From positions 80,005 to 144,004 of the forward strand of contig CAXEND010000001.1 of NCBI GenBank assembly GCA_963997635.1: 64,000 nt of DNA, in the 5' to 3' direction. Positions 2,255 through 59,637 of the stretch are shown here, piece after piece. The notes beneath the pieces were generated by a model. The model worked only from the letters and a program-made list of their open reading frames with translations, was not told the origin of the DNA and did no database searches. The stretch's first letter is position 1. Every line of letters begins with the position of its first letter. Both the position numbers and the translations under genes were made by a program. The DNA is from an uncultured Rhodospirillaceae bacterium (GTDB taxonomy: Bacteria; Pseudomonadota; Alphaproteobacteria; UBA828).

Positions 2255-2268
2255 CTCTGGAGAATATT

Positions 2269-2308
2269 ATGAATAAGAAAATGGAAAAATTTATATTTTC
2301 TTATTCAT
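2269..2308. terminator. Perfect 14-bp inverted repeat (atgaataagaaaat / attttcttattcat) with 12-nt loop between convergent genes; candidate bidirectional terminator
   Basis: Read directly from the sequence. It lies between the yejF-like stop (2254) and the dapE stop (2301-2303) and overlaps the dapE stop codon. Confidence 0.4.
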
Positions 2309-3458: not shown

Positions 3459-3463
3459 GGCAT

Positions 3464-4306: not shown

Positions 4307-4415
4307 AGTTATCTCCTTAATAATATTAATATTTGGAATATTAATAAAAATTTCATTCTAATCTCTGGCATATTACTAATCAACAGTGTGATTCATAGTT
4401 ACATCTAATTTAGAG

Positions 4416-16632: not shown

Positions 16633-16659
16633 AAAGGTTTTATTTTCTATAATTTTTAA

Positions 16660-17007
16660 TTAAATTATTGACAACACATTTTCAGGAGGGCGTCCAATAA
16701 CAGCCTTATTGTTAATGACTACAATTGGTCTTTCTAAAACAGATGGATGTGCGGCCAAAGCTTCAATTAATTTTTTGCGTGAGAGTTTCTGATTATCTAG
16801 GCCAGCCTTCTTATAATCAGGTTCCTTTTTACGCATTATATCGCGAGGCTCCATACCTAACATATCGAGTAGGTTTTCAATAGTTTTAACATCAAGAGGG
16901 GTTTTTAGATATTCAATTATTTCAGGGGACAATTTATTTTCATTAAGTAATTTAAGTGTTTCACGAGATTTTGAGCAGCGTGCATTATGATAAATTATAA
17001 CTGACAT
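16660..17007 (-). CDS. ArsC/Spx-family protein (arsenate reductase-like thioredoxin fold)
   Basis: 115 aa; N-terminal YHNARCSKSR motif typical of the ArsC family. Confidence 0.75.
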   Translation of the reverse strand: MSVIIYHNARCSKSRETLKLLNENKLSPEIIEYLKTPLDVKTIENLLDMLGMEPRDIMRKKEPDYKKAGLDNQKLSRKKLIEALAAHPSVLERPIVVINNKAVIGRPPENVLSII

Positions 17008-17269
17008 TTTTAATCCTTTATTTTTTATTTATTTAGAATTTAGTATTGTATATATGAATTATTATATTTTACTCGTTTAGGCTTATCAGGCGTTTTTTGT
17101 TTTTAATGGTATCCAAGTAAGTTACCAATTATTAAACATTATGTTGGCTCCCACAAAAATATTAATTCATTTCACTGGTAGTGATAGTTGCGATGTACAT
17201 ATGAGTAAATTATTATGAAAGTATGCTTTATGCGTATTTTTTCATATAAAAATACTGTGTTGTTAAAGA

Positions 17270-43069: not shown

Positions 43070-45286
43070 GTGAGTTTTTTACGTCGTGTTTTCCGTAGGT
43101 TTGGTTGGGTGCATCTCATTGCACTTGGCTTATTAGCTGCACTCATTGTTCTTAGAGTAGCAGACCCAGCACCTCTACAACTTCTTAGATCAAAAATATT
43201 TGACTTTTATCAACAGGTTGAACCAAGAGAGCGAAGTAGACAGCCCGTAGCAATAGTAGATATTGATGAGGAAAGTTTAAGGGACGTTGGTCAGTGGCCT
43301 TGGCCAAGGACAACTGTTGCACGGCTTCTTAATAATCTACGCAAATATGGGGCTGCAGGAGTGGCTTTTGACGTAGTGTTTGCTGAGCCAGATCGTACAT
43401 CTCCAAATCTAGTAGCAAAAAATATACGAGGCCTTGGAAAAAAAGCACGCCAAGAGCTGGAACGACTTCCTAGCAATGATGAAACATTTGCGAGGATTAT
43501 CAAGCGGAGTCCAGCAGTACTTGGTCAGGCCACAATAAATAGAAAAATTGTAAAAACAGAGAGAAAATCTTTAAAAGCGACATTTGGCTATAAGCAACCA
43601 AAAGGGGTTCAAGCAAAGAATTTTATGCTTTCGTATCCTGGCATTACTAGAAATTTAGAAATACTTGAGAATGCTACTCCTGGTATTGGAGTATTTACTT
43701 TTAAGCCTGCAGTTGATGGAATTGTTAGGCAAGTACCACTAGTTGTAAGAGTTGATAATCGGGTATATCCGACACTTTCTTTAGAACTCCTAAGAGTAGC
43801 CACAAAACAAAAAACTTTTGTTGTCAAGGCTAATCAGGCAGGGCTTCAATCTGTTGTTGTTGCAGGTCTAGAAATTCCTACTGACCAGAATGGACAAGTA
43901 TGGATGAAATTCGCCAAGCACGATAGAAATTTATATATTCCAGCAAAAGATGTATTAAACAAGACTATTTCAAAGGAACGTATTGCGGGGCATCTTTTAT
44001 TTATTGGAACTTCTGCTGCTGGCCTTCTTGATATTAAAGCAACTCCAGTTGACCCAGCAATTCCTGGTGTAGAGGTTCATGCTCAGCTTCTTCAGAATAT
44101 AATGGATAAAATATATTTGATTCGACCAGGTTGGGCTATTGGTGCTGAGGTTATAGCTTTAGGATTATCCGGATTACTCTTAATTGGCCTTATACCATTT
44201 TTAGGCTCGCTATGGACTTTAATTATTGGATTGACATCTATAATTGGATTAGTAGCGATAACTTGGTGGGCATACCAATCTTCAGGAATGCTCCTAGATT
44301 TAATTTATTCAGCGTTTTCGGTTTTCTTAATATATGTAGTTTTGACATTTTTAAATTACATGAGAGAAGAAAGAGAAAGACGGCAGGTCAAAGGTCAATT
44401 TAGTCATTATTTATCTCCAGATTTAGTAAAGCAGTTAGCTGATGATCCAACTCGATTAACTCTTGGCGGAGAGATGAAAGAAATGACTCTATTATTTGCT
44501 GATATTAGAGGCTTTACAACCATTAGTGAGCAATTTGATGCTGAAGGCTTAACACGCTTTATAAATCGATATTTGACACCTATGACTGAGGTGATATTAC
44601 AACGAAGAGGGACTATAGATAAATATATGGGTGATTGTATAATGGCATTTTGGAACGCCCCCATAGATGATCCTGATCATGCAAAAAATGGGGTTAGATC
44701 AGCACTCGCTATGTTCGAAGAGAGTGATAAGATGAATGAAGTATTGAAAGCTGAAGCAAAAGACGAAGGGAGAAAATATATACCTCTACGCATTGGTGCA
44801 GGACTCAATACGGGTGTCTGCTGTGTAGGTAATATGGGATCTGATATGCGTTTTGATTATTCTGTTTTAGGTGATGACGTTAACCTAGCAGCAAGATTAG
44901 AGGGACAATCAAAGACTTACGGCGTTAATATAGTCATAGGTGAAAAGACCTATAATGCTGTTCAAGATTTTGCTTGTCTTGAGCTTGATCGTATCCAGGT
45001 GAAAGGGAAAACTGTACCTGTCGATATATTTTGTGTCTTAGGAGATGAAAAGAGAGCACAAAGTCCAGAATTTAGAGCTATCAAATCACTTAATGAAAAT
45101 ATGATAACTGCTTATCGAAAACAGCAGTGGAAATTAGCTAATCAAAGAATTGAAGAATTAAAGGAAATTGACAAAAATAAAGAGCTAGAAGTTTTATGTG
45201 AACTTTATGAGCAAAGAATATCTTACTACAAAGAAAATCCGCCCGGCGATAAATGGGACGGATCCTTTATTGCTACTACAAAGTAA
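43070..45286 (+). CDS. CHASE2 sensor-domain adenylate/guanylate cyclase (class III)
   Basis: N-terminal TM, ~300-aa periplasmic domain, three closely spaced TMs, then a class III cyclase domain (LLFADIRGFT ... GDCIMAFW ... GLNTGVCCVGNMGS). Confidence 0.8.
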   Translation: MSFLRRVFRRFGWVHLIALGLLAALIVLRVADPAPLQLLRSKIFDFYQQVEPRERSRQPVAIVDIDEESLRDVGQWPWPRTTVARLLNNLRKYGAAGVAFDVVFAEPDRTSPNLVAKNIRGLGKKARQELERLPSNDETFARIIKRSPAVLGQATINRKIVKTERKSLKATFGYKQPKGVQAKNFMLSYPGITRNLEILENATPGIGVFTFKPAVDGIVRQVPLVVRVDNRVYPTLSLELLRVATKQKTFVVKANQAGLQSVVVAGLEIPTDQNGQVWMKFAKHDRNLYIPAKDVLNKTISKERIAGHLLFIGTSAAGLLDIKATPVDPAIPGVEVHAQLLQNIMDKIYLIRPGWAIGAEVIALGLSGLLLIGLIPFLGSLWTLIIGLTSIIGLVAITWWAYQSSGMLLDLIYSAFSVFLIYVVLTFLNYMREERERRQVKGQFSHYLSPDLVKQLADDPTRLTLGGEMKEMTLLFADIRGFTTISEQFDAEGLTRFINRYLTPMTEVILQRRGTIDKYMGDCIMAFWNAPIDDPDHAKNGVRSALAMFEESDKMNEVLKAEAKDEGRKYIPLRIGAGLNTGVCCVGNMGSDMRFDYSVLGDDVNLAARLEGQSKTYGVNIVIGEKTYNAVQDFACLELDRIQVKGKTVPVDIFCVLGDEKRAQSPEFRAIKSLNENMITAYRKQQWKLANQRIEELKEIDKNKELEVLCELYEQRISYYKENPPGDKWDGSFIATTK

Positions 45287-45354: not shown

Positions 45355-47082
45355 TCACTCGTAGGGCCAAAGTCGAGCAAAGTTTTCATCTTCATTAACA
45401 GAGATTATTTTCTGATTCTGTGTAGATCCAAGAACATTAGAATTATTCTTTTTAGACTTCGCAACAATAGGTTTTATAACCTTGGTTAATCCGCTTTCAT
45501 TTTTTGTAGAGAATAATTGTGATTCTTCAGTCAATATCTGAGTTTTTTGAGAGATGTTAATTTCTTTTATTTTCTTACCTGTATTTTGATGTTTAGCTAA
45601 AGGTAGAGTAACCTTTTGTTTAACAGTAAGTTTTTCATTAGTTGTAGTTTCTTTTATATTAATAGAAGTTTTTGTTTTTGTAGGCTTATCTAAAAGAGAA
45701 ATTTTATTTTTTTTTGGCAAAGATGCTAAATTTGTAGAATTTTCAAGCGTTAAGCGTCCCATCGTAACCATTAGTCGATATACTGCGATGCGTGCATCGT
45801 GTTGAGCAGATACTAAGTTAATTCTGGCGTTAAATAACTCACTTTCTGCACCTAAAACATTTATGACGGTCTCTTTTCCTGCATCGCGTAATTTTTTTCT
45901 AGCTTCAAACACTTCAGCTGCAATGTTTACTGCATTCTGTAATAATGAGACTCTTTCTCTTGCTGTTTTTAGTCCTGACCAGGCTAGACGTGACTCTTCG
46001 GTGATTTTTCTTTTTACAAAATTACCAGAGTCAATTGTTGCCTTATGATTAAATGCAGCTTGTGCAGCTCCTGCACGTGTGGCAAACCCATTAAATATGG
46101 TCCATGAGGCGTTTACTTTTGCTTTATAGTCTCGTCTAGTACCTCGAGTTCCACTCAGGTCATCTTCATAATTCCATTCGCCTGTGACGTCGATAGTTGG
46201 GAAATAGTCTGCCTTTGCTATACGTTTTGCAGCGTTAGCGATTGATGTTTGTGAGCTAGCGCTGAGAATTGCTGGGTTTTCAGATAATGCTATTTCTATT
46301 ACTTCCTCCACTGTTTCAGGTACAAGGCCAAGAGGTGGGGTGGGCATGACTAGATTCTGGGGATATGGTGCGTGACCAAAAACTTGTTCGTAACGGCTTA
46401 TAGAATCTTCAAGTTGCCCTTCAAAAGAAACTCTACGTTCTTTAGCTACTTGAAGTGTAGATTTTGATTGTAATACATCAACTGCAATCCCAGCTCCTCT
46501 TCTTACTCGTTCATCTTCTAATTCTAGCTGAAGTCGAATAGTTTCTTCATTATTGCTAGATAATCTGAATAATTTAAAGTTACGCATTACTTCTAAATAG
46601 ATAGAAATTGCCTCAAAAAGAATTCCTTGTTTACTTGTTTCTGCCGAATGTTGTGCAGCAATCATTCCCGCTTCTGCCGTTTCGTTATTTGCATCATTTC
46701 TGAATCCATTAAAAATTACTTGCGTAACGGTAATTTTTGCATTTCGTGCTTGCCCAGTTGTAAAGGGACTAGTGTTAGGGTCTGTGGCTGATCGTCTTCC
46801 AGGGCTATCTATACGTTCATAGCCAAAGTTTCCTGTTGCTTGGATTGTGGGTAAATATTCTGCCAAGGCAGATTTAATACCTTCTTTTGCAGAAAAAACA
46901 CCTGCTTCTGCAGCTTTAATTTGTGGATGATTCTCGAGGATTCCTGATAACTCCTCCTTAAGTGTTTCGCTGGAAGATGAAGATACTGACACTAAAGTTG
47001 CACTTGCAGTTAGTATGCTGATCCATAAACTTTTATGAATTAAGTTCCTCATTAAGCTTGCTCCAATAGAACTACTCGACAA
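45355..47082 (-). CDS. TolC-family outer-membrane channel protein with ~130-aa low-complexity C-terminal extension
   Basis: Signal peptide; TolC-type duplicated helical/beta repeat architecture (ENHPQIKAAEAGV...YLPTIQATGNFGY); C-terminal K/T/N-rich tail; last gene of the cytochrome operon. Confidence 0.75.
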   Translation of the reverse strand: MSSSSIGASLMRNLIHKSLWISILTASATLVSVSSSSSETLKEELSGILENHPQIKAAEAGVFSAKEGIKSALAEYLPTIQATGNFGYERIDSPGRRSATDPNTSPFTTGQARNAKITVTQVIFNGFRNDANNETAEAGMIAAQHSAETSKQGILFEAISIYLEVMRNFKLFRLSSNNEETIRLQLELEDERVRRGAGIAVDVLQSKSTLQVAKERRVSFEGQLEDSISRYEQVFGHAPYPQNLVMPTPPLGLVPETVEEVIEIALSENPAILSASSQTSIANAAKRIAKADYFPTIDVTGEWNYEDDLSGTRGTRRDYKAKVNASWTIFNGFATRAGAAQAAFNHKATIDSGNFVKRKITEESRLAWSGLKTARERVSLLQNAVNIAAEVFEARKKLRDAGKETVINVLGAESELFNARINLVSAQHDARIAVYRLMVTMGRLTLENSTNLASLPKKNKISLLDKPTKTKTSINIKETTTNEKLTVKQKVTLPLAKHQNTGKKIKEINISQKTQILTEESQLFSTKNESGLTKVIKPIVAKSKKNNSNVLGSTQNQKIISVNEDENFARLWPYE

Positions 47083-47214: not shown

Positions 47215-48495
47215 TTATGCGTCTAGAGTTAAATTACCTTTTGGTATTGCAATACAAGCAAGGCATGAACCCTCCTCTGGTTCAGCTCCCGGTGCATTTA
47301 GATATTCAACTTCACCATCCTTGATTGCTGTTATACAAGTCCCACAATTTCCTGCTCTACAGCCAAAATCTATATCTACATCATTATCTTCAGCAAAATC
47401 AAGTATTGCTCCGGAATCTGGATCCCAATCTAAAGTTTTACCAGATTTGGCAAATGTAAGTTTTAACCCTGCACTAGATATTGAGGCTTCTGTCGCCTCT
47501 TTGTTGGCTTCTGTTTTTGTTTTTTTAACTGTAGCAGGACCAAAAGCTTCAAAGTGAATATGTTTATTCGGCACACCCCACGCTTCTAGGTCAGGCACAA
47601 CGGTATTCATCATCGGTGGTGGGCCACACATATAGAAGTCATAATTACTTGAGGGTAAGACTTTCTTAAAAAGTTCTACAGAAACTCTTTCTGCATAAGC
47701 ATAGTCTTCGCCTTCGGTATCTTCCTCACCTGGTTTGGAGAAGCATATACACATATGAATATTTTCATGCTCTTTTCCAATTTGTTTTAGATGGTTAGCC
47801 ATCACAGCTTCTTTGCTGTTTCTTACTCCATAAAAAAACCAAGTTTCACGTTTTGATCCAGATTCAACAATATCATTTAACATCGAGAGTACTGGTGTTA
47901 ATCCGATACCTCCACCAATGAGAACAACGGGGGTTTGTTTTGTTCTATCAAGAAAAAAATGACCGCCTGGAGCCTTTATATCAAGGATATCACCCTCATT
48001 AATTTTATCATGGAAAAAATTTGATGAAAGGCCTGGTGGAGCATCTGGTTCGTCACGTGGCGGGGGGACACGTTTGATTGAACAGCGGTAGTAGTCTGGG
48101 TGGTTTGGACTGTCTGAAAGCGAGTAACATCTAATAACTTGTTTTTTTTGTTCAGGTATATCAAGTCCAAATGTGAGATATTGACCAGGGTTAAATGGTG
48201 GTAATGGCTTTCCATCATGAGGTGAAAAATAAAATGAGCAAATATCACCACCTTCAGGGATTTTTTTCTTGACCTGGAATTTACGAAATCCGTTCCAAGA
48301 GAGTTCCTCAGACTCTTTCTCGAACTTACGGCGATCCATAATTCTTTCAATTTCTTCACGAAATATTTTATCTTGTAGTGCAGAGCTTTTTGCCAGTAAA
48401 GCTTCACGTCTAAAATTGCCAACACCTGTAAAGAAAAGTGTTGCGGCAAGAATAGCTAGAAAGACTAGAGCGACAATATGAATAGCAGTTTCCAT
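47215..48495 (-). CDS. Membrane-anchored oxidoreductase: FNR-like flavin/NAD(P)-binding domains plus C-terminal plant-type 2Fe-2S ferredoxin domain
   Basis: N-terminal TM helix; flavin motif RCYSLSD; NAD(P) motif GGGIGLTPVLSML; C-terminal CRAGNCGTC...C cluster motif. Confidence 0.75.
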   Translation of the reverse strand: METAIHIVALVFLAILAATLFFTGVGNFRREALLAKSSALQDKIFREEIERIMDRRKFEKESEELSWNGFRKFQVKKKIPEGGDICSFYFSPHDGKPLPPFNPGQYLTFGLDIPEQKKQVIRCYSLSDSPNHPDYYRCSIKRVPPPRDEPDAPPGLSSNFFHDKINEGDILDIKAPGGHFFLDRTKQTPVVLIGGGIGLTPVLSMLNDIVESGSKRETWFFYGVRNSKEAVMANHLKQIGKEHENIHMCICFSKPGEEDTEGEDYAYAERVSVELFKKVLPSSNYDFYMCGPPPMMNTVVPDLEAWGVPNKHIHFEAFGPATVKKTKTEANKEATEASISSAGLKLTFAKSGKTLDWDPDSGAILDFAEDNDVDIDFGCRAGNCGTCITAIKDGEVEYLNAPGAEPEEGSCLACIAIPKGNLTLDA

Positions 48496-48566: not shown

Positions 48567-50108
48567 TTAAAATTTGCGGCGTATTTCAAAGCGTGCTCCG
48601 GAAATGTTTTGCTCCTCTGTTCTCCATCCGTGCATTGCATCAGCTCTAAATAACCAAGCTTCATTGATATTTTGCTGGTAGCGTAAACCCAAGGCATATT
48701 CATCTCCGCGAAGGCTCCTACCTACCTCATTTTCTCCTTCAATGACTTGGTTTGTAGCTGCTTCAATGACGATTTGACGATCTAAATTGAAGAGATAACT
48801 AACTCCTATAGCTCCACCAAATGCATTCTGTCCGGTATCATTGAGTTTAGGAAATCCTGTTAACCCATCTGTTTCAAAGTTAATACCAGTATTCTTTAAT
48901 AATCCATCTGCTCTAGCTGCTGATTGAGGCCTGTCAATGCCTACAAAAAAGTTACCATAAGGGACCAGTGTTGAGGGTAGACTTGTAATCAGGGAGTTCT
49001 CAACTAATAAAATTAAACCATCAGCCGTATCTTGCAAGTTATTGTCTCTATCTTGTCCAAAAGACCATATTGCTCTTATGCTATTAGAAAGCAATGCTCC
49101 GTATCTTTTTGTATATGCAATTGTAGCACTATTATATGACTCGTCGTCGAATCCACCTTCTCCATCTAATCTAGCAAAACCAGCTTCCCAGTATGCTTCC
49201 ATAGCTTCTACAAATGTAGCTACTCCAAAGATATTGACGTTATGATCAGCATTTGCATTTTGATCATCTTTGAAAGCTTGATTTGTAACTTTGTCAAAGC
49301 CATAGAAAAAAGATATATCCATATTGGTTATGTCCAATAATGGACTGTTGAGTGAGGGAATAGCAGTTGCTACACCTGTGAAAGCATCCTCAATCCATAT
49401 CCCATTTTGGAATAAGAGTGGCATAAGGCCTAATGAAAAGGGAACGTCAAGACTGGAGTATTCACCGCTAAAGCCAGCGTAAAGTGCACCTGCATCTCCT
49501 TCAAAAAATAGTGCATCTAAATTTCCATCGATTTGTGCATCACATTTCTTATTGGGGTCATTATTTGGTGCATCGTCACCAAAAAACTCGCAACGGCTAA
49601 ACTCACCTTGTCCATCAAGTGGCCTTAAAATAGCATGGATTCTCTCAGTTCCAGTGAATTTATAATCAATATCTAAATTAAGCCTAGTAGCAACCTGTCC
49701 TACCTCAACATTTCCATTGTCATTAAAAGCCAGTGCACTACGCCAATCTCCATAAACATATAGCTCTGTGAAAGTAGGGTTCAACTCTCCAAGAGCATCA
49801 CCTCCTTCAACTAATGGTCCACCAGAATAAAGAGGATTTCCAATCTCTAATAGAGGTCTTGTGACAGGATAGGCTGATTTGCCACCATAAATTTGAAGTT
49901 GGGCTTCAATATCATACTCTTCTTCTGGGTAACTTGGATCAGCTCTAAATACACCTGCGTCATGTTCGACAATTTTTGAGCGTGTATCTTTTTTGATCTC
50001 GGCACCATTGGCAAGATTTTGTTCTGCAGCAAATGAAAATGTTAAACTTGCGGCAATACAAAATGGCAATAAATGGTATCCAGGAAAGTTTTGAATGATT
50101 TTTTTCAC
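48567..50108 (-). CDS. Putative outer-membrane beta-barrel protein (porin-like)
   Basis: Signal peptide; C-terminal Phe (…ARFEIRRKF); alternating hydrophobic beta-strand pattern. Sits between multiheme cytochrome genes and an oxidoreductase, 7 nt downstream of the pentaheme gene. Confidence 0.5.
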   Translation of the reverse strand: MKKIIQNFPGYHLLPFCIAASLTFSFAAEQNLANGAEIKKDTRSKIVEHDAGVFRADPSYPEEEYDIEAQLQIYGGKSAYPVTRPLLEIGNPLYSGGPLVEGGDALGELNPTFTELYVYGDWRSALAFNDNGNVEVGQVATRLNLDIDYKFTGTERIHAILRPLDGQGEFSRCEFFGDDAPNNDPNKKCDAQIDGNLDALFFEGDAGALYAGFSGEYSSLDVPFSLGLMPLLFQNGIWIEDAFTGVATAIPSLNSPLLDITNMDISFFYGFDKVTNQAFKDDQNANADHNVNIFGVATFVEAMEAYWEAGFARLDGEGGFDDESYNSATIAYTKRYGALLSNSIRAIWSFGQDRDNNLQDTADGLILLVENSLITSLPSTLVPYGNFFVGIDRPQSAARADGLLKNTGINFETDGLTGFPKLNDTGQNAFGGAIGVSYLFNLDRQIVIEAATNQVIEGENEVGRSLRGDEYALGLRYQQNINEAWLFRADAMHGWRTEEQNISGARFEIRRKF

Positions 50109-50115
50109 GGCTCTT

Positions 50116-51957
50116 CTATCCTTTTACTTCAAATTCAACCGTGTAGGCGTCAATGTCTAGCATCCATTCGTTCATTGCACGCTCCATTTCTTTTGTGGCG
50201 CCAACAAACCTCATGAAATAGATTGGCTCAGCTCTACTTCTCATCCTGATAGCCAATTTATATGTGCCTGGTTGTTTTATGAGCTTTCCTGGAACTGAGT
50301 AATCAGCATCACGGCTAGATAATGGGGGAAGACTTCGCCCCTCCATTCGAACAAAGGGTGGGTGATTTATAACGGTTGTAGGCTGTGATGCTGGCCGTAG
50401 GAATGGAAGCTGGTCTACATCAAAGTTTACCGGCAAATACATCTCACGATCTGTCCCTTTTACGTTTGTAGTTAAGAATTTAGTCTGTAAATTAACTAAT
50501 TGGTCATCATATGGGACCTTTCCAGATAAAACGTCTGCACTATGAAGGTCTGCCATATCTCCTGCAGAGTCGGTATATCCAGATTCCCAAATATTTGTTC
50601 CATCAGGTCCTATCAGTGCAACATTAACCCAGAGTTCTGGCTGAGCACCAAGAGAGCCTGAAGGTAGATTATGTCCCGAATTAGTGTTTGAAATTGTGTA
50701 AGTGAAGTCGAGATCATGGCCAATTTGAGGGTTGTCATCAAAGAATGGCCCATCGATGTGGGAACCATTTTCCATGACTTGTCTCCTCAATTCGCGTTTT
50801 TCTTCTATAAGCCCAATGTTATAGTTTATAATTTCCCTAGCTTCTTCCCTGTCAAAACGATCTTCCCAGACTTCTGGAAATTCTATTTCTTCTATTTCTC
50901 CAGAATCAACTAATTCTTCATAATTATCTTCCCAATCTTCTTCTCCCCATGGAGCTCGATAGTTAAACTGAAGCCATTCTTCCATGGTCCAGTTTTCAGC
51001 GTCTGGGTTATGAGGGAAAATACCAGGGTGTGCAATAGGGTATCCTGGACCTGCAAAGGCATGACTATGTCTAATCCTGTCAGGATTTACAGCACGCCCA
51101 TCTACAACCGCAGCTGGACCAGTTTTGAAATGACCTGCAACCCCAGGTTTGTAACTCATATGGCAGTCTTGACATGACACACCTTGAGCATGGGCAGGCG
51201 AATCACGATACTGATCCCAAACTACTTCAAGCTTAATTCCTAAATTAACAGCAACCTGATGACATGAAACGCAAAATTCTGATTGATTGAGCTGTGTAAA
51301 AATTTTGCCTTCATTATGAATTTGATTTCCGCGCTCATCAGAATTAGTGGCAACTTTCCAAGTGCTAGCATTCTCGACCACTTCTTTAATCCCATCGCCT
51401 CCTAAGACGCCGTATACAGGTTCAAATATTTCCCCCATCACAATATTTCTGGAACCATTTGCTTTTCCATATGCTGTATTTACGCGGTGGCAGGTAATAC
51501 AAGTAATACCTTCCCGGCTAACTTGTTTACGTTCCCACATAGGGAGTTCCCTAGCTTCGCCCATTTGTGTGCTTACTGTTGCATGGCAGCGAACACAGAA
51601 TGTATTTATTGTGGGAGCAAGTGAGTTAATTGCATTTTCAAATTTATGAAACATTGGAGAAAGTGAGGCGTAGGCATGGTTTGATGAAGCCCATTCTCTG
51701 TAGATATCCTCATGGCATGATTTACATTTTGATGCACTGGGAAATAAATCTTCATTCAAAATATCTGTGTGCATTTTATCGGCATCAATTGTTTCATTGT
51801 CACTTGCTTCTAAATCTCCAGAAACTGATGAGAATGCAAATAGTCCAATGAGACATAAAAAGACTGAAATTTTAGTTAAGGTTTTTTTCATCATAATTGT
51901 AGTTTTCTCATGATCAGAGAAAATACTGTTTTTAAATAATATACTTAACTTAGTCAT
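50116..51957 (-). CDS. Secreted pentaheme cytochrome c with large heme-free acidic C-terminal domain
   Basis: Five CxxCH motifs (CKSCH, CVRCH, CITCH, CVSCH, CQDCH) within the first ~265 residues, then ~350 residues with none. Alternative start at 51894 (MMKKTL..., classic signal peptide) would remove the 8-nt overlap with the decaheme gene. Confidence 0.8.
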   Translation of the reverse strand: MTKLSILFKNSIFSDHEKTTIMMKKTLTKISVFLCLIGLFAFSSVSGDLEASDNETIDADKMHTDILNEDLFPSASKCKSCHEDIYREWASSNHAYASLSPMFHKFENAINSLAPTINTFCVRCHATVSTQMGEARELPMWERKQVSREGITCITCHRVNTAYGKANGSRNIVMGEIFEPVYGVLGGDGIKEVVENASTWKVATNSDERGNQIHNEGKIFTQLNQSEFCVSCHQVAVNLGIKLEVVWDQYRDSPAHAQGVSCQDCHMSYKPGVAGHFKTGPAAVVDGRAVNPDRIRHSHAFAGPGYPIAHPGIFPHNPDAENWTMEEWLQFNYRAPWGEEDWEDNYEELVDSGEIEEIEFPEVWEDRFDREEAREIINYNIGLIEEKRELRRQVMENGSHIDGPFFDDNPQIGHDLDFTYTISNTNSGHNLPSGSLGAQPELWVNVALIGPDGTNIWESGYTDSAGDMADLHSADVLSGKVPYDDQLVNLQTKFLTTNVKGTDREMYLPVNFDVDQLPFLRPASQPTTVINHPPFVRMEGRSLPPLSSRDADYSVPGKLIKQPGTYKLAIRMRSRAEPIYFMRFVGATKEMERAMNEWMLDIDAYTVEFEVKG

Positions 51958-53923
51958 TATTAGTTACTCTCAGATTAAATCCTGTTTCATTATGATAGAG
52001 GTGGCATAACTGACAATCTTGCCTTACTTGTCCTTCATTATGACACTGAGTGCATGTTTCTTTATCTATCGAATCAAAGTTACTCTCAAATATATGCGGG
52101 TTGTTATCACTAAATGAAGCACCATAGTTAGCTTGGACATTTAATTTGTGGCAAGTTTGGCAGCCCGCTTCTGGATCAGCCAAATTTATACCACTTGGAT
52201 TGAGTATGTTTAAATGGGCTCCATGTGAATAAAACGTATGTGGTCTACTCTTTGAATTATTAAAGTTCCACTGTACATGTAAAGGGTTTGTTTCAGTTTC
52301 TGAAACAGAATGACACTTCGTACAGGCTCCAAAACCTTCCTTAGGATTAAGTAATTCGTCCCTCATAAACTCCCCAGACTCTTCAACATCCTCATCATCA
52401 TCAAGCACACTTAGAGCACCAAAGTTAATCCAAGCACGGACTACCGGATCTCCATGTCCAATAGGTTTATATTTTAACTCAACACCTTCTGCGTACCAAC
52501 CCCCATAATTTGGGTCAGAAGGTGACTCATATTCTTCATTAGATGCCCAAGCACATGCCACCTCTCTAGTAAGTGTTGGGCTCAGACCAGAGAGCATCTT
52601 TTTTGCGCCTTCGGCTCCAACTACTTCGGCAATTGTTTCCTCAAGAACTTCAGAGCCGTCTTCTAATAGACCTACAATCAAAGTCTGCAGTGGCTCTGTG
52701 TATTCAGAAGAGTCATCAATTGGTGTTCTAAGCAGATATGAACTGATAGCTGCTGGTTCGTCAAAAGAAACTGGTTCATATTCTTCTTCATCACCTATTA
52801 AAATTTCTTCATCAAGCATGTCTAATTCTTCTGCTTCAATTGCTTCACGCACTGTTGCTATATTATCTTGTATTTCTTCCCAAGCTTCAAGTGTGGGGCC
52901 ACAAGTTTCAGATACAAAATCTAAGTCAATAAAATTATCATCAAATTCAGGAAGCCTAAGTAATACTAGTTCACGACGAGGAATTGCATCATTATGGCAA
53001 CTTGCACATGCAGTTTGATATCCGACCGGCTTTACAGATTGCACGGCATCACTTACTTCATGACATGAAGTGCAGTTTGTTGGGGCAATATCTTCTAGTC
53101 TTTGATCTTTAAAATGTTGAGTTATATGGCTTGAATGATCAAAGCGTATTGCCGTACGTTGATCATGTGGAAAATCATCCGCAAAGTTTGGATGATTATT
53201 TGCAAAAGAAGAAATTTCTCTTTCATGGCAAGTATTACATTTTGCATCAGAAATAGCAGTTATATCAAAATCTTCTCCTTTGTGTTCAGAATGGCATGCA
53301 ATACAACTAAAATTATTGCTATGGGTGTTGGTCTTATTTGCATTGGAAGAAATATTGTGGGCCAGAAATGGTTCACCTACAAATGTGTGGCAATTTAAAC
53401 AATTTTTTGAAATATTGTTCTCTTCGAATGCAGCAAGAAACCATTCTCCAGCATCCTTTGCATGGGGTTCGTGGCAGGCAACACAACCGCTAGAGGAGGT
53501 AAAATTTGCGTGGCCGTCTGTTAATGGGCCAGCAGATGAAATTACATTATGTCCAGATCCATCACTTCCAAGGGTTAACATCAGGGCAATAACAGATATT
53601 ACAATTGCAAATGCACTTATAGCCATTAAACCTCTTAGGCTTCTAATACTTCTGCGTGGGCGACACGGTGGCTGATGTTGAGAGCATTTACCATCTGATC
53701 CAGGGCCATTGTCACATGGGCCTCCAAATAGTGTAGATCGCCTACATTCAAAGCGATCACCAACTTGTGCTGGTTGGCATTCATAGATACCACCACATTT
53801 GCCACTATTATCAGGGCCAAATTCACAAGGCTTCCCCCATTCAGCTGCTCTCCCACAACGAAATTTACGATTGGGTCGTTCGTAGCGGCTGATGTCATGC
53901 CTGAATTTATTTGGATCCATCAT
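51950..53923 (-). CDS. Membrane-anchored decaheme cytochrome c with cytoplasmic duplicated 4-Cys N-terminal module
   Basis: Ten CxxCH motifs (CVACH, CLNCH, CIACH, CNTCH, CTSCH, CASCH, CTKCH, CQTCH, CTQCH, CQLCH). Single TM helix preceded by an Arg-rich stretch. Start taken as ATG 53923, forming an ATGA overlap with the upstream stop, rather than the ORF-track start at 54007. Confidence 0.8.
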   Translation of the reverse strand: MMDPNKFRHDISRYERPNRKFRCGRAAEWGKPCEFGPDNSGKCGGIYECQPAQVGDRFECRRSTLFGGPCDNGPGSDGKCSQHQPPCRPRRSIRSLRGLMAISAFAIVISVIALMLTLGSDGSGHNVISSAGPLTDGHANFTSSSGCVACHEPHAKDAGEWFLAAFEENNISKNCLNCHTFVGEPFLAHNISSNANKTNTHSNNFSCIACHSEHKGEDFDITAISDAKCNTCHEREISSFANNHPNFADDFPHDQRTAIRFDHSSHITQHFKDQRLEDIAPTNCTSCHEVSDAVQSVKPVGYQTACASCHNDAIPRRELVLLRLPEFDDNFIDLDFVSETCGPTLEAWEEIQDNIATVREAIEAEELDMLDEEILIGDEEEYEPVSFDEPAAISSYLLRTPIDDSSEYTEPLQTLIVGLLEDGSEVLEETIAEVVGAEGAKKMLSGLSPTLTREVACAWASNEEYESPSDPNYGGWYAEGVELKYKPIGHGDPVVRAWINFGALSVLDDDEDVEESGEFMRDELLNPKEGFGACTKCHSVSETETNPLHVQWNFNNSKSRPHTFYSHGAHLNILNPSGINLADPEAGCQTCHKLNVQANYGASFSDNNPHIFESNFDSIDKETCTQCHNEGQVRQDCQLCHLYHNETGFNLRVTNND

Positions 53924-54735
53924 AATGCATACACATTTACGACTATTACGTGCCAAAAAATCAGTGCTAATACTGCAGCTGCTAATGGCACATGAGCTAG
54001 AAGCCAATATTTCATCATCGATTGACAGGCAAAATGAAAATCAATTTTCGATTTATATTTAGCAAGGTCGTTGAGATTATTTAGATATTCACGCTCAGCT
54101 TCGCTTAAATAACGTGACACTGTCTGGTAACTTTGGTTTATCCAATGTTCTGCTGCTGCACCGCCAAGAGTATGGCTAAGGAAAAACCTTGGACGCTGAA
54201 AATACCAGCGTAGTGATTCCATATAATGCCGAGCAAGAGTGTCACTACCTGTATTTTCTGTACAGGCAATTGTTATAGATTCTGATTTTTCTCTTAACTC
54301 TGAAAGTTCTGCTGGTATACGTTCATAAATAATTTCTAATTCAGTCTGAACAAGGCGTTTAGGGTATATTTTTTGTATAATGTATCCAAAAATTCCACTG
54401 ATGGTAACTAGATAAAATACTATCGCAAGTGCTTGTTCATATGCACCAGTTGGCCATACATTTCCTGTGTGAATGAAAAACAGACCCAGAGCTGCTATAC
54501 CGCCAACCACGTGAACTGCAAGCCAATAAGCAGATCTTCCAAAGGGAACCATAGATAGTTTTTTTCGTGCATTAAAAGTAGCTAGCCCTAGCATTAAACC
54601 AAAAAGCACATATCCTGTTATAAATTCTGGCTGACCAAGATTAATATTTGAAATTGAAGAGTATGTAGCAAAGGCAGCAATAAAAGCTGCACTAAATACC
54701 CACAGAATAATATAACGTGTGGTTACAGCATTCAT
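53920..54735 (-). CDS. Integral membrane protein, putative di-heme cytochrome b (NarI/DsrM-like)
   Basis: About 5 TM helices. Two TM segments each carry a His pair 13-14 residues apart (HVVGGIAALGLFFIH; HVPLAAAVLALIFWH), as in bis-heme b proteins. Start and stop are translationally coupled to both flanking genes. Confidence 0.5.
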   Translation of the reverse strand: MNAVTTRYIILWVFSAAFIAAFATYSSISNINLGQPEFITGYVLFGLMLGLATFNARKKLSMVPFGRSAYWLAVHVVGGIAALGLFFIHTGNVWPTGAYEQALAIVFYLVTISGIFGYIIQKIYPKRLVQTELEIIYERIPAELSELREKSESITIACTENTGSDTLARHYMESLRWYFQRPRFFLSHTLGGAAAEHWINQSYQTVSRYLSEAEREYLNNLNDLAKYKSKIDFHFACQSMMKYWLLAHVPLAAAVLALIFWHVIVVNVYAL

Positions 54736-56405
54736 ACCTTAACCCCTGTAAAGGTCTCCTCACCCTGAAAGTTAACACGCCTAAGTGCATCATGCGGGCA
54801 TGCTCTTACACATGCTGGTCCACCTGGGTTGTTTGAACACAGGTCACATTTTGTAGCCTTGCTGATAGGCTTTTGTGTGCCTGGATCCCTGAGTGGTTGA
54901 CCCTTTAAATCTCGAATTTCAACTAATCTTATATTATTGTATGGACAAGAATTTGCGCATGTCCCACAGCCTATACATGTATCATCATTAATTACTACTG
55001 CCCCAGAATCTAGAGAACGATGGATTGCCCCTGTCGGGCATCCAATCATGCAAACTGGATCTTCGCAATGCATGCATGCGTTTGTAACCATCCAATTATC
55101 AAATGTTCTACCATGCCTTATAAACCTTGGATTTCCACCATGTGTAGAGGCACAGGCTCTAACACAATCGTCGCAGCGAACACAACGCTCAAGGTCAATA
55201 AGCATTGCCATAGTACCATTAATAAAGCGTTGATCCAGTGCCCATTCCATTGGGGCATCTGCTTCCATTGATTTTGATAAAGATGGTGTTAACAGTGGTT
55301 TAGGGTTATCCTTAATTTTTGGGAAAACATATTTTTCTATAATAGGTGCGGGAACTCTGAGTATATCTACGTAACCAAGAGCAGAAAGAGAAGTTTGAAG
55401 TGATTGTTCCCCAGTAGTTTTATTGGCCCATAATTCATCAAAGCCAAAATAATCTCCTGCTCCTAGATACGTTAGTGTGCGTTGTCCCGTCCCCATTTTT
55501 ATTGATACTCTTGCAAAACCAGCTCGAACCATTAGTAGACCATCCGGATAATTACCTTGTTTAGCTATAATTGGTTCTTCAGCAGATTTTCCTTGTTCAC
55601 GCATACGTTTATATGAAACGTTCCAATCAAAACTACCAAAAGTTTCAAAAAGTGTTGAGTTAGCTACTTCCTCCAATTCTTCTGGTTCTAGATCAGAAAA
55701 TAAAGGTGTTTCCTTCAAGTGAACTTTTAATGCATTTTCTCTGTAGCGTTCATCAATTTTACGGCGCCATTCAGTGTCATATTTTCTGATCTCTCTCAGA
55801 CCTTGCCACCTAATCTCTAGAAGTTCAGCGTCATTTTCAGCAAAAATACTGGCAGTTCTTGGCACACGTCCTAGAGCTGCTAATTCTCCAAAAAGTGCAC
55901 CAGATTCAAGTTCTGCTGTTTGATGGCTATTTAGAACAGCGGGAATATCTTGAATAAAAACATGCGATGATGTCAGATCCCCAGAGTCTGGATCACGGAG
56001 TGCTTGTGATCCATAACGTGAAGTATCTCGTAATTCTGGTTCTGATGAATTTGTCCAGAGCTGGCTTAGTGCCTCAATAAAATTACGTTTTTTAGTAGAC
56101 TCTCTGCCTATCATTGAGCGAGGTAGACTTGGGTTTATAACCACCCTCACTTTCCCGCTAATTACAAGGAACGCTGAGTTCCCATAGTCTCCTTCTCGAA
56201 CTACTATATCTCCTGATTTGTATTTCATAATTCTGGTATCGTTTTCTAAGATACCAGAAAGTGGGGTATGCTTTGGAAAACTTTCAGAGTCTATCGCTCT
56301 AAATTCTGGTAAATTTAGAAGTTTTTCAACTTCTGTTTCAGTCATTTCGGGGCCAAAAGGTGCTTCCCATCGCTGCGGGCGTGCCATCATTGCAACTGTA
56401 GACAA
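54732..56405 (-). CDS. Cytoplasmic protein with two cyclic-nucleotide-binding domains fused to a four-cluster [4Fe-4S] ferredoxin module (DmsB/NrfC-like)
   Basis: Two cNMP-binding-like segments (…GDIVVREGDYGNSAFLVISGKVRV…; …GLLMVRAGFARVS…GAGDYFGFDEL…). Four cluster motifs (CVRCDDCVRAC; CMHCEDPVCMIGCP; CIGCGTCANSCP; CDLCSNNPGGPACVRACP). No signal or TAT peptide. Confidence 0.8.
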   Translation of the reverse strand: MSTVAMMARPQRWEAPFGPEMTETEVEKLLNLPEFRAIDSESFPKHTPLSGILENDTRIMKYKSGDIVVREGDYGNSAFLVISGKVRVVINPSLPRSMIGRESTKKRNFIEALSQLWTNSSEPELRDTSRYGSQALRDPDSGDLTSSHVFIQDIPAVLNSHQTAELESGALFGELAALGRVPRTASIFAENDAELLEIRWQGLREIRKYDTEWRRKIDERYRENALKVHLKETPLFSDLEPEELEEVANSTLFETFGSFDWNVSYKRMREQGKSAEEPIIAKQGNYPDGLLMVRAGFARVSIKMGTGQRTLTYLGAGDYFGFDELWANKTTGEQSLQTSLSALGYVDILRVPAPIIEKYVFPKIKDNPKPLLTPSLSKSMEADAPMEWALDQRFINGTMAMLIDLERCVRCDDCVRACASTHGGNPRFIRHGRTFDNWMVTNACMHCEDPVCMIGCPTGAIHRSLDSGAVVINDDTCIGCGTCANSCPYNNIRLVEIRDLKGQPLRDPGTQKPISKATKCDLCSNNPGGPACVRACPHDALRRVNFQGEETFTGVKV

Positions 56406-56582: not shown

Positions 56583-57518
56583 TTATTTAAACTCGGTAGG
56601 AAGTAAGCCTCCGACAGTTCCAGATAGATCCTGATCTTTTATAGCTGCAGTTAATGCTACTGCATTTTCTCTGTTTGGGTTTTCTATTAATGTTTTCGCT
56701 GCATCAACTCCAGAAAGAGCTGCTCGAGCGGCTTCGGCACGGGCTTGTTGGAATTCAATAAATTTAGGAGAACCAGACCTACTTATTGCTATTGTAGCCG
56801 ATACAAGCTTAGCAGCTTGTCCTACTACAAATGCACGGCTCATTTCGGCAGGTGTCATTTCGGCATTTTTTGTCATATCTGGCGGATAAAAACGATGTCT
56901 TATACTACCTTGGCTATATTTGACGTATTCCCAGTCAGGTTTAGCGGGATGACCATTTTCTAGCATTATAGCTAATTTTTCTGGATCTATGTTTGCATTT
57001 GCAAGTCCATGACACTCATTACAGTTTTCTGCTATTCCATAGCGGTCAAAAGACCATCGCATTCCAGCAGCCGTTGCTGCAACAATTCTTTCATCCTTCG
57101 GCTCTGCTCTATTATTATGAATTGTAAACCAATCAGACGATGCCCCGTGACAGCTTTCGCAGGACGGGCCAGCTTTTGGTTTTGCTTTTGCGGCGGATGC
57201 TGCGTCTTTGGCTACCAAGGTATAGTGGCATTGAACACATGTTTCATTCTTTTTCATGCTTTTATTACCAGTAGCCTTTGCGAGTGCTTTTGCTAACTTA
57301 CTTTTATGGACTTTTTTAAAGGATTTTGCGTGTTTGGTTTCTTCCCAAATCTGAAACTCAGCTTTGTGGCATTCAGCACACTTTTTGGGTCCTTGGTTAA
57401 ATGGCTCTGCCATAGATTGTCCAGATAAAATTACAGCTCCACCAAGTATTAAAAACATACCAGCTATTGCTGCGACTATTATTTTATTTTGCAATGAGAA
57501 CATCTTTGCCTTCCCCAA
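56583..57518 (-). CDS. Membrane-anchored tetraheme cytochrome c
   Basis: N-terminal signal-anchor; four CxxCH motifs (CAECH, CVQCH, CESCH, CNECH); Ala/Lys-rich C-terminal region; first gene of the operon. Confidence 0.75.
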   Translation of the reverse strand: MGKAKMFSLQNKIIVAAIAGMFLILGGAVILSGQSMAEPFNQGPKKCAECHKAEFQIWEETKHAKSFKKVHKSKLAKALAKATGNKSMKKNETCVQCHYTLVAKDAASAAKAKPKAGPSCESCHGASSDWFTIHNNRAEPKDERIVAATAAGMRWSFDRYGIAENCNECHGLANANIDPEKLAIMLENGHPAKPDWEYVKYSQGSIRHRFYPPDMTKNAEMTPAEMSRAFVVGQAAKLVSATIAISRSGSPKFIEFQQARAEAARAALSGVDAAKTLIENPNRENAVALTAAIKDQDLSGTVGGLLPTEFK

Positions 57519-57749: not shown

Positions 57750-59417
57750 CTAAATTGGGAATTCGATTTTACCTAATCTAGCTGAAAGTTTCATATTTTC
57801 TCTATAATCAATTGGTATTGCAATAACAGCTGGGCCATCTTGCTTATATGCAGTTTTTAGAGCTGGTAAAAGTTCATCAGAACTTTTAAGGGTTTTTCCC
57901 CACGCACCGAAAGATTTGGCCCACAACTCAATATTTGGATTCGTGAACTTTAGATCACTATGTCGCCCGTTGAAAGAATTCTGTTGCTTCCATTTGATTA
58001 ACCCATATTCGCCATCCATCCAAACTAAGGCAACAACATTTAATTTATATCTTACCGCAGTTTCAATATCCTGAGCATTCATATGAAACCCTGCATCTCC
58101 ATTTATAGATAAAACTTTTTTATCGGGGCAAGCAATTTTAGCACCTATAGATCCTGGGAATGCAAAACCCATCGTACAGAAACCATTTGAAATTAGACAA
58201 GTATTAGGTTTGTCGCACTGGTAGTAGCGGGAAATCCACATTTTATGTGCTCCAACATCTGACAATAAGATATCATCAGGACCCAAAAATTCCCGAACAT
58301 CATATAAAACCTTTTGTGGCTTCATAGGAAAGGCCTTAGAACGTTTTTCTTTTTGAAGGTCAGAACTTATTGTTTTTCTTAAGGCGGCCCTTTTCTTAAT
58401 ATCAAATAGCGGCAGAGGAATATTTCTTTTCTCTGTTCGTTTAGTTAATTCTTCATTCATTTGCCAAAGGGCGTCTGCAATATCTCCTGCAACATCAACA
58501 GCTGGTTGGTAATGATCATCAACTTCTGCAGGCCAAAAATCTATATGGATAATTTTCTTTTTTGATCCAGCATTCCAGAAAGCTGGAGCGTATTCCACCA
58601 AATCATAACCAGCAGATATAATTACATCTGCTTCACGCATAGCTGCAATTATATGGTCTTTGCCTTGAAGTCCAACTGTGAAAAGAGAATGTTGATCAGA
58701 GCGTGGAATTGCACCTTTCCCCATAAATGTATTTACGACCCCTATACCCGTAAGTTCGGCAAAACGACGAAGTTGTTCAGAAGCTCTTTTTCTTACTGCT
58801 CCATTGCCAGCCAAAATCAAAGGATTTTTTGCTCTCATTATTATGTCTACAGCCTTTGCCACAGCTTTGTGATCTGCACCGGGTCTGCGGGTTACATAGG
58901 GCTTAATTGGTTTTTCAATGGTCTTGTGCTCAGCGATATCTTCCGGTAGTTCAATTAGAACAGCACCAGGTTTTTCTGTTTCTGCTACCTTAAAGGCTTT
59001 TCGAACTATTTCTGGAATATTGTCAGGGTGATAGACTGATTGTGCCCATTTAGTGATTGGCTTAAACATGGCTATAGAGTCCATATTTTGATGGCTTTCT
59101 TTGTGTAAACGTTCAGTATCCGCTTGGCCAATCAAACAGACAAGAGGTGCTCTATCCATATTTGCATCAGCAACACCAGTTACCAGATTTGTGGCTCCTG
59201 GTCCTAAGGTTCCTAAACAAACTCCAGCCTTTCCAGTAAGACGTCCATACACATCCGCCATGAATGCGGCAGCCTGTTCGTGTCTGCAGAGAACAAACTT
59301 AATTTTTGAATTCATCAAAGAGATCATTACGTCTGCATTCTCTTCTCCGGGAATACCAAAGATATGGGTCACCCCTTCATTTTCTAGACATTTGACAAAA
59401 AGGTCTGAAGCTTTCAT
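57750..59417 (-). CDS. Thiamine-pyrophosphate enzyme, acetolactate synthase-like (catabolic AlsS-type)
   Basis: TPP-enzyme N-terminal block (VTHIFGIPGEE…LGPGATNLVTGVADA) and C-terminal TPP-binding region. Start placed at ATG 59417, preceded by GGGAGA, rather than the ORF-track start 59483. Confidence 0.75.
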   Translation of the reverse strand: MKASDLFVKCLENEGVTHIFGIPGEENADVMISLMNSKIKFVLCRHEQAAAFMADVYGRLTGKAGVCLGTLGPGATNLVTGVADANMDRAPLVCLIGQADTERLHKESHQNMDSIAMFKPITKWAQSVYHPDNIPEIVRKAFKVAETEKPGAVLIELPEDIAEHKTIEKPIKPYVTRRPGADHKAVAKAVDIIMRAKNPLILAGNGAVRKRASEQLRRFAELTGIGVVNTFMGKGAIPRSDQHSLFTVGLQGKDHIIAAMREADVIISAGYDLVEYAPAFWNAGSKKKIIHIDFWPAEVDDHYQPAVDVAGDIADALWQMNEELTKRTEKRNIPLPLFDIKKRAALRKTISSDLQKEKRSKAFPMKPQKVLYDVREFLGPDDILLSDVGAHKMWISRYYQCDKPNTCLISNGFCTMGFAFPGSIGAKIACPDKKVLSINGDAGFHMNAQDIETAVRYKLNVVALVWMDGEYGLIKWKQQNSFNGRHSDLKFTNPNIELWAKSFGAWGKTLKSSDELLPALKTAYKQDGPAVIAIPIDYRENMKLSARLGKIEFPI

Positions 59418-59637
59418 TGCATATCTCCCTAATAAAAATGTTATATTAGAGTATCGCTGACATTTTTCGATCGTCAACAGCAAGTATTAAAAAGTATCAA
59501 CATTTAGGGTAGTAATTAAATTTATTTTGATGTTTTCTTATGTAAATACGGATTTATTTTGTATAAATTTGTATTTTATCTCTTCATTAGTTTATTGTTC
59601 AATCTTGATGATTAAACTCACTTATTAGGTTGTAATT

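Follow-up and report, generated by a model that had tools for sequence, protein, structure and literature searches.

PtdE, a putative cyclic-nucleotide-gated iron-sulfur subunit of the Ptd electron conduit in a marine alphaproteobacterium

To our knowledge, it is largely unexplained how bacteria turn the export of electrons to the periplasm or the cell exterior on and off at the protein level, and the well-studied conduits all begin at the quinone pool. The present analysis concerns the ptd operon, and in particular its protein PtdE, encoded in a 64,000-nucleotide stretch of DNA (hereafter the window) from an uncultured Rhodospirillaceae bacterium. The closest described system is the ptdABCDEFG porin-cytochrome operon, in which PtdE was named, reported in a 2024 preprint by Elbon, Stewart and Glass from marine Alphaproteobacteria of the order UBA11136 and from saline habitats only (bioRxiv 10.1101/2023.11.21.568154). 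A full-text literature search returned this preprint as the single paper on the PtdE architecture, with no follow-up work found, and its text supplements contain no PtdE detail.

The window carries a complete ptd operon on the minus strand, in the order D-E-F-G-A-B-C. As in the published operon, it encodes a tetraheme cytochrome (D), a ferric-reductase-like protein (F), a decaheme cytochrome (G), a pentaheme cytochrome (A), a porin (B) and an oxidoreductase binding flavin adenine dinucleotide (FAD) and NAD(P) (C). The domain architecture of PtdE is common to both, and both hosts are marine alphaproteobacterial metagenome-assembled genomes (MAGs) labelled Rhodospirillaceae. The window protein is thus almost certainly the PtdE of the Ptd system, and with its architecture already published it does not count as a new discovery. 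In contrast to the preprint, which contains no analysis of the cyclic nucleoside monophosphate (cNMP) sites, the present work covers those sites and also describes soil Xanthobacteraceae and a reduced E-F-G-C form. The additions observed here are a count of four clusters, one intact and one degenerate cNMP site, natural E-F fusions and a CHASE2 adenylate cyclase adjoining ptd in close relatives. To these are added the E-F-G(-C) core, the assignment of PtdC as a reductase together with a model of NAD(P)H input, relatives bearing an FHA domain, and the occurrence in soil. The reading favoured here, with a probability of about 0.55, is that PtdE is the cytoplasmic Fe-S subunit of a trans-envelope electron conduit and is gated by cNMP.

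Domain anatomy of PtdE

PtdE is 100% identical to MBR71539.1, deposited as 'hypothetical protein CMM30_01180, Rhodospirillaceae bacterium' from a Tara Oceans MAG, and belongs to a family of 671 clusters (50% identity, E<=1e-30). A Shine-Dalgarno sequence, GGGGGA, lies 6 nt 5' of the TTG start; an alternative start, ATG 56390, is located five codons downstream, where the deposited orthologs begin. In Pfam, PF00027 (cNMP_binding) matches the protein with an E value of 2.6e-23 over three stretches, namely the two halves of a split first domain and residues 279-356, while Fer4_11 and Fer4_7 span residues 439-541. This fusion of a cNMP-binding domain to 4Fe-4S ferredoxin motifs is the architecture of PtdE, for which NCBIfam holds no family. 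A sequence scan detected neither a hydrophobic segment nor a twin-arginine translocation (Tat) or general secretory (Sec) signal, and the ptdE stop overlaps the ptdF start as ATGA. The Pfam matches include no helix-turn-helix (HTH) family and the C-terminus is occupied by the ferredoxin domain; a role as a CRP/FNR transcription factor is ruled out by the absence of an HTH domain. The original prediction, made from the letters of the window, had proposed two cNMP-binding domains, four complete [4Fe-4S] motifs, a cytoplasmic protein with no signal peptide and translational coupling to a putative cytochrome b, and all of these are confirmed by the domain matches, the cysteine motifs, the sequence scan and the ATGA overlap with a ptdF gene whose product has four invariant histidines. 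It had also recognised no characterised family in the architecture; the family is indeed uncharacterised, but the claim of an unknown architecture was overstated because the published name PtdE exists (bioRxiv 10.1101/2023.11.21.568154).

PtdE contains exactly 16 cysteines, every one of which lies inside one of four motifs: CxxCxxCxxxC (residues 408-418), CxxCx4CxxxCP (444-456), CxxCxxCxxxCP (477-487) and CxxCx8CxxxCP (520-536). Conservation was followed in a wide MAFFT alignment of 99 sequences, comprising the window PtdE and 98 cluster representatives with 31-53% identity to it (median 42%), in which every cluster cysteine is conserved in at least 96 sequences. Four [4Fe-4S] sites are predicted from these motifs, against the two listed in the preprint (bioRxiv 10.1101/2023.11.21.568154), and the literature is corrected on this point. 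The best PDB matches of the Fe-S domain are 7qv7_A (E 6.8e-21) and 7z0s_B (1e-14), and by sequence its nearest relatives are the cytoplasmic HycB3/HycB/HydN/AegA group, rather than the DmsB/NrfC/HybA type of the original prediction. Similarity to DmsB, NrfC, HybA, DsrO, ActB and HmcB is weak. The top NCBIfam scores reach 60-70 bits where the curated cut-offs are 200-1000, and because they lie so far under these cut-offs PtdE is not an ortholog of DmsB, NrfC or HybA. No molybdopterin enzyme or hydrogenase partner is encoded in the ptd operon or its flanks. PtdE orthologs in the P0023 and P0101 clusters have been automatically named 'Hydrogenase-4 component A' or 'NADH-dependent phenylglyoxylate dehydrogenase subunit beta', both of which are misnomers derived from the ferredoxin domain alone.

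The N-terminal half of PtdE folds, in an AlphaFold2 (AF2) model with a predicted local distance difference test score (pLDDT) of 74 and a predicted template modelling score (pTM) of 0.65, into two cyclic-nucleotide-binding (CNB) domains. This half matches the tandem CNB-A/B of PKG I-beta (4z07) with a Foldseek E value of 8e-17, and the matches to PKG and PKA regulatory subunits, which span E values from 8e-17 to 1e-14, display the beta-barrel CNB fold. Similarly, in a sequence search against the PDB the two halves of the first domain (CNB1) match PKG/PKA regulatory subunits at residues 51-93 and 163-238. They are separated by a lineage-specific insertion, modelled with a pLDDT below 50, whose conservation is 0.16 across the wide family and which is conserved locally. 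A linear motif N-terminal to CNB1, RPQRW(D/E)xPF, is invariant among close relatives, present in ~65% of distant ones and disordered in the model; a possible role is docking or autoinhibition, in the manner of the inhibitor sequence that PKA regulatory subunits carry.

CNB1 retains the entire phosphate-binding cassette, FGELAALGRVPRTAS. Among 93 relatives with 55-89% identity the segment F172-G-E-L-A-A-L-G-R-(V/I)-P-R183 is invariant and T184-A185 nearly so. Over the wide alignment Gly173 is kept in 96/99 sequences, Glu174 in 80/99, Arg180 in 92/99 and Arg183 in 83/99, with Glu174 and Arg183 occurring together in 68/99. Mean conservation across the same 99 sequences is 0.64 for the CNB1 cassette, 0.66 for the Fe-S domain, 0.44 for the rest of CNB1 and 0.41 for the second domain (CNB2); judged by sequence, the CNB1 cassette is canonical, and its conservation equals that of the Fe-S domain. 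In characterised CNB domains the conserved Glu and Arg hold the ribose 2'-OH and the cyclic phosphate, and the retention of Glu174 and Arg183 therefore argues for genuine ligand binding by CNB1. The Thr that follows Arg183 does not decide between cyclic AMP (cAMP) and cyclic GMP (cGMP). In the CNB2 cassette, FGFDELW...SLQTSLSA, the Arg is absent and the loop is longer. The Glu is not fixed among close relatives, although Glu324 is present in 73 of the 99 wide-family sequences, and the window has Ser where 60 of the 99 have Arg, a residue absent from the window's clade. From its sequence CNB2 is best described as a non-canonical, degenerate second site. Thus the two cNMP-binding domains of the original prediction differ in state, the CNB1 cassette being intact and CNB2 degenerate with no Glu/Arg pair in this clade, and the architecture, although named, has no function assigned to it in the preprint.

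PtdF and the conserved core of the locus

PtdF matches no Pfam family, Ferric_reduct included, even at E<=10, and has five predicted transmembrane (TM) helices rather than six. Across 30 sequences with 47-79% identity to the window PtdF, His75/His89 and His248/His262 are invariant; they make up two HX13H pairs located on the predicted helices TM3 and TM5, the His-pair pattern of ferric reductases and NADPH oxidases (NOX). PtdE and PtdF are naturally fused in at least three distinct clusters, P0089, P0251/P0412 and P0258, whose identities to PtdF are 54%, 31% and 31%, respectively, and in these fusions the C-terminus of PtdE is linked to PtdF TM1. This geometry, together with a Lys/Arg-rich PtdF loop at residues 55-67, places PtdE and the helical domain of PtdF (residues 125-240) in the cytoplasm, and the resulting topology would position one His pair close to each membrane face. 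In the AF2 work PtdE and PtdF were predicted as separate proteins.

The order D-E-F-G-A-B-C is found in nine loci and recurs in L001, L003, L007-L010, L015 and L017, in marine gamma- and alphaproteobacterial MAGs and soil Xanthobacteraceae MAGs whose PtdE proteins are 54-88% identical to that of the window. Three of these loci (L007, L008 and L009) are soil Xanthobacteraceae MAGs with a complete ptdD-E-F-G-A-B-C. An Omnitrophota MAG (L013/L014) and the fusion locus L012 carry E-F-G-C alone, and L018 has D-E-F-G-C plus divergent cytochrome and porin-like genes. In each locus of sufficient length to judge, F directly follows E and is itself followed by G; E-F-G therefore forms the invariant core, to which C is usually added, and by this gene-content comparison the porin-cytochrome pair ptdA/ptdB and the tetraheme ptdD are accessory.

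Signalling domains other than CNB also attach to the family. An FHA domain is fused to the CNB/Fe-S core in 9 of the 20 long family members scanned (P0244, P0247, P0264, P0276, P0293, P0334, P0350, P0360 and P0363), and in some distant relatives, such as P0244, it lies between the CNB1 halves. In L012, E-F-G-C is bordered by genes for a Ser/Thr kinase, a PP2C phosphatase and a separate FHA protein (2089-4931 and 16191-17135 of that locus). These associations suggest phospho-threonine signalling as an alternative input to the PtdE-type redox module.

Proposed electron path and its control

The electron donor is suggested by PtdC, whose reductase module matches flavohemoglobin (E 7e-57) and has the layout of phthalate dioxygenase reductase in the PDB, identifying it by homology as an NAD(P)H reductase of flavohemoglobin type that also carries a 2Fe-2S domain. 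The relatives of PtdC, which include flavohemoglobin, phthalate dioxygenase reductase, NqrF and methane monooxygenase reductase, oxidise NAD(P)H and pass the electrons through flavin to an acceptor, and on this ground an outward path is proposed, in which the seven-gene Ptd system probably takes electrons from NAD(P)H across both membranes. Electrons would pass from NAD(P)H to the FAD and [2Fe-2S] cluster of PtdC, to the four [4Fe-4S] clusters of PtdE, to the two b hemes of PtdF and across the membrane to the membrane-anchored decaheme PtdG; with the full operon they would continue via the tetraheme PtdD to the outer-membrane pair of the pentaheme PtdA and the porin PtdB. In this arrangement the HycB-like domain of PtdE would dock on the cytoplasmic face of PtdF, a putative four-helix bundle with two b hemes. 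That PtdE is an electron wire docked on PtdF is likely, and outward flow driven by NAD(P)H is given slightly better than even odds. What the analysis shows is the domain anatomy, the conservation of residues, the gene order, the fusions and the family relationships; heme and cluster binding, the direction of flow, the identity of the ligand and the gating are inferred.

An outward route of this type would bypass the quinones, conserve no energy and depolarise the membrane, as NADPH oxidases do. Because it would carry negative charge out, it would drain both reducing power and membrane potential, and a switch would be needed. The N-terminal tandem CNB module, arranged as in a PKA/PKG regulatory subunit, is the candidate for this switch: cAMP or cGMP at CNB1 would alter the engagement of PtdE with its donor or with PtdF, CNB2 serving as a degenerate structural partner. 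The cNMP-gated electron-transfer subunit of the original prediction is consistent with this anatomy and with the CNB1 site; gating itself is plausible, at odds a little short of even, and unproven. A possible local source of the ligand, on circumstantial grounds, is the CHASE2-sensor cyclase encoded two genes past ptdC, beyond a TolC-like gene, a position common to the window, L001 and L015. The top PDB matches of its catalytic domain are all adenylate cyclases. A tentative extension, somewhat more doubtful than gating alone, is that cAMP from this envelope-sensing cyclase binds CNB1 and directly opens or closes a quinone-independent valve, widespread among marine and soil bacteria, that leads electrons from NAD(P)H to the periplasm or the outside of the cell and is formed by PtdC-E-F-G, with or without D-A-B, and that in sister lineages phospho-threonine, read by FHA, provides the input at the corresponding position.

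Several observations weigh against the gated outward conduit. Glu174 or Arg183 is absent from 31 of the 99 aligned sequences, so cNMP gating cannot hold across the whole family, and the Foldseek matches include the nucleoside-binding PKA regulatory subunits of trypanosomes, so that other ligands of the CNB fold are possible. Linkage of the cyclase is limited to close relatives (3 of ~13 long loci), and in L016, where the order is D...E-F-G, PtdC is absent within 10 kb. The direction of flow is based on PtdC homology and thermodynamics, and the PtdE model is only moderate at its overall pLDDT, the CNB1 insertion not being resolved. The preprint, finally, states that the function of PtdE "remains completely unknown" (bioRxiv 10.1101/2023.11.21.568154).

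The first of these observations also bear on an unlikely alternative in which PtdE is an Fe-S wire and its CNB module is a scaffold or docking module, or binds another ligand such as a nucleoside or nucleotide. The degenerate CNB2, the relatives in which CNB1 has lost its Glu or Arg, the nucleoside-binding subunits of the same fold and a cyclase neighbour that is not widely conserved would all be explained. This account must however accommodate the retention of the Glu/Arg pair in the majority of sequences at 31-53% identity and a cassette that is the most conserved stretch of the N-terminal half of PtdE, as the Glu and Arg residues usually disappear from CNB folds that no longer bind cNMP.

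An inward conduit, in which a donor outside the cell or in the periplasm, for example Fe(II), reduced sulfur or nitrite, feeds the cytochromes, PtdF and PtdE so that PtdC reduces NAD(P)+, is improbable. Porin-cytochrome systems are able to work both ways. According to the preprint, ptd genes occur in nitrite oxidisers, and its alphaproteobacterial MAGs transcribe sulfur-oxidation genes (bioRxiv 10.1101/2023.11.21.568154). Inward transfer through the two hemes of PtdF would nevertheless have to work against the membrane potential, and Ptd appears to encode no subunit for energy coupling. Electron transfer from a c-type heme to NAD(P)+ is moreover strongly uphill, and the PtdC relatives all work in the direction of NAD(P)H oxidation. 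Slightly less probable again is a PtdE that acts mainly as a sensor, its clusters reporting the redox state while the CNB module integrates a second messenger to control PtdF/PtdG or other targets. The attached signalling domains, CNB here and FHA in relatives, and the kinase and phosphatase adjoining one locus are in line with such a role, yet every solved complex with a four-cluster HycB-type domain uses it as an electron wire, all 16 cysteines are conserved, PtdE shares its operon with an NAD(P)H reductase and is either fused or tightly coupled to a membrane protein of diheme type, and no output domain (HTH, kinase or GGDEF) is found among its Pfam matches. Very improbable, finally, is a reading of PtdE as a DmsB/NrfC/HybA-type subunit that sits in the periplasm and belongs to a quinol-oxidising module comparable to NrfCD or alternative complex III. 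The weak similarity to DmsB, NrfC, HybA, DsrO and ActB speaks for this reading, which, in its NrfC-like form, is ruled out by the missing signal peptide and hydrophobic segment, by an operon encoding neither a Tat-bearing partner nor an NrfD/PsrC-type membrane subunit, and by the cytoplasmic topology that the fusions and the Lys/Arg-rich loop impose, the NCBIfam scores and the need of PtdC for cytoplasmic NAD(P)H pointing the same way.

If the gated conduit is real, PtdE would provide the first example of allosteric control of an Fe-S electron-transfer subunit by a cyclic nucleotide, whose action would here involve neither transcription nor a kinase. If the NAD(P)H route is real, Ptd would be a bacterial counterpart of the NADPH oxidases, extended by an Fe-S wire and a porin-cytochrome exit. 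The hosts of the family include abundant uncultured marine Alphaproteobacteria of oxygen-deficient zones and soil bacteria, and the intact cNMP site, with Glu174 and Arg183, offers a mutable handle on direct second-messenger control of electron flow.

Neighbouring genes and comparison with known systems

The features of PtdE and of the surrounding genes are collected in Table 1. The open reading frame of ptdG reaches 54007, but its likely start is ATG 53923, at an ATGA overlap with the stop codon of ptdF. Ahead of its single TM helix PtdG has a cytoplasmic domain of ~100 residues, conserved in 10 other loci, with the pattern YERP..RCGR..PC..CGG..C.P..CRR..GGPC..DG.C..PPC.PRR; the eight cysteines of this domain suggest that a periplasmic cytochrome here binds a metal or cluster on its cytoplasmic side. 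PtdB has no Pfam match, its position 3' of ptdA is conserved across loci, and the preprint calls it a porin (bioRxiv 10.1101/2023.11.21.568154). Directly upstream of ptdD a thiamine-pyrophosphate enzyme of the acetolactate-synthase type is encoded in the window, L001-L004 and L015, a synteny of the marine relatives. In L015 a gene of metallo-beta-lactamase fold (7857-8681 of that locus), which the window does not contain, also lies directly upstream of ptdD and has a weak Pfam match to Anti-Pycsar Apyc1, a cyclic-nucleotide phosphodiesterase family. A promoter and terminator scan of the ptd operon gave fewer promoter-like sites than in shuffled sequences and nothing usable.

Table 1. Features of the ptd locus with their positions in the window; residues are those of the encoded protein.
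Feature	Coordinates	Strand	Residues	Description
CHASE2-sensor class III adenylate cyclase	43070..45286	(+)		Pfam assignment; best PDB match CyaB 3r5g, E 4.5e-40
TolC-like gene	45355..47082			
ptdC	47215..48495	(-)		N-terminal TM anchor, FAD_binding_6, NAD_binding_1 and plant-type 2Fe-2S Fer2 (Pfam)
ptdB	48567..50108	(-)		Putative outer-membrane porin; signal peptide, C-terminal Phe
ptdA	50116..51957	(-)		Pentaheme cytochrome c; 5 CxxCH
ptdG	51950..53923	(-)		Membrane-anchored decaheme cytochrome c; 10 CxxCH; cytoplasmic 8-Cys N-terminal domain
PtdG N-terminal 8-Cys domain	53560..53923	(-)	~100 aa	Precedes the TM helix
ptdF	53920..54735	(-)	271 aa	Five predicted TM helices; cytoplasmic helical domain of ~115 aa; putative diheme cytochrome b
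ptdE	54732..56405	(-)	557 aa	Cytoplasmic; tandem cNMP-binding module and four-[4Fe-4S] ferredoxin domain
PtdE HycB/HydN-like ferredoxin domain	54771..55208	(-)	400-545	16 Cys, four predicted [4Fe-4S]
PtdE CNB2 fold	55326..55685	(-)	~241-360	Best Pfam stretch 279-356; non-canonical cassette
PtdE CNB1, including B/C helices	55710..56339	(-)	~23-232	Split by the insertion at 92-160
PtdE CNB1 phosphate-binding cassette	55839..55892	(-)	172-189	FGELAALGRVPRTASIFA; canonical; Glu174, Arg183
PtdE CNB1 insertion	55926..56132	(-)	92-160	Lineage-specific, ~70 aa; low-confidence model
PtdE N-terminal linear motif	56358..56381	(-)	9-16	RPQRW(D/E)xPF
ptdD	56583..57518	(-)		Periplasmic tetraheme cytochrome c, c554 type; signal peptide; 4 CxxCH
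Thiamine-pyrophosphate enzyme	57750..59483	(-)		Acetolactate-synthase type

Ptd resembles conduits of the MtrCAB/CymA type in leading through the periplasm and the outer membrane by means of a porin and multiheme cytochromes. The known conduits take their electrons from the quinol pool via CymA, ImcH or CbcL, whereas no recognisable quinol dehydrogenase is encoded with Ptd, which has its own NAD(P)H-linked cytoplasmic input. The three-layered design, with a periplasmic multiheme cytochrome c, a membrane cytochrome b and a cytoplasmic Fe-S protein, is similar to that of the Tmc, Hmc and DsrMKJOP complexes. These, however, contain a NarI-type cytochrome b and HdrD-like CCG proteins, possess neither a CNB module nor an NAD(P)H reductase, and bring electrons inward to sulfite reduction, the reverse of the direction proposed for Ptd.

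In its working principle Ptd may be likened to a NADPH oxidase or ferric reductase such as NOX5, of which it would be a split version with an inserted Fe-S wire. The Ptd counterpart is divided into three proteins, with five predicted Fe-S clusters between flavin and heme, and PtdF has five TM helices against six. The acceptor also differs, being a multiheme cytochrome in Ptd and O2 or Fe(III) directly in the NOX and ferric reductase proteins.

The two halves of PtdE each have a characterised counterpart. HycB, HycB3 and HydN of formate hydrogenlyase and hydrogen-dependent CO2 reductase carry four Cys motifs with the same spacing as those of PtdE and serve as a cytoplasmic wire linking a soluble redox module to its partner, as is proposed for PtdE. 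In contrast to PtdE they contain no CNB module, and their partner is a hydrogenase or formate dehydrogenase instead of a small diheme-type membrane protein. The N-terminal half shares with PKA/PKG regulatory subunits the tandem CNB arrangement, the canonical Gly-Glu...Arg-Thr-Ala cassette of the first site and a conserved linear motif N-terminal to CNB-A. It differs from them in its degenerate second site, in the 70-residue insertion in CNB-A and in an identity of only ~15%. The controlled partner differs too, a kinase in the PKA/PKG regulatory subunits and, as proposed here, a redox wire in PtdE.

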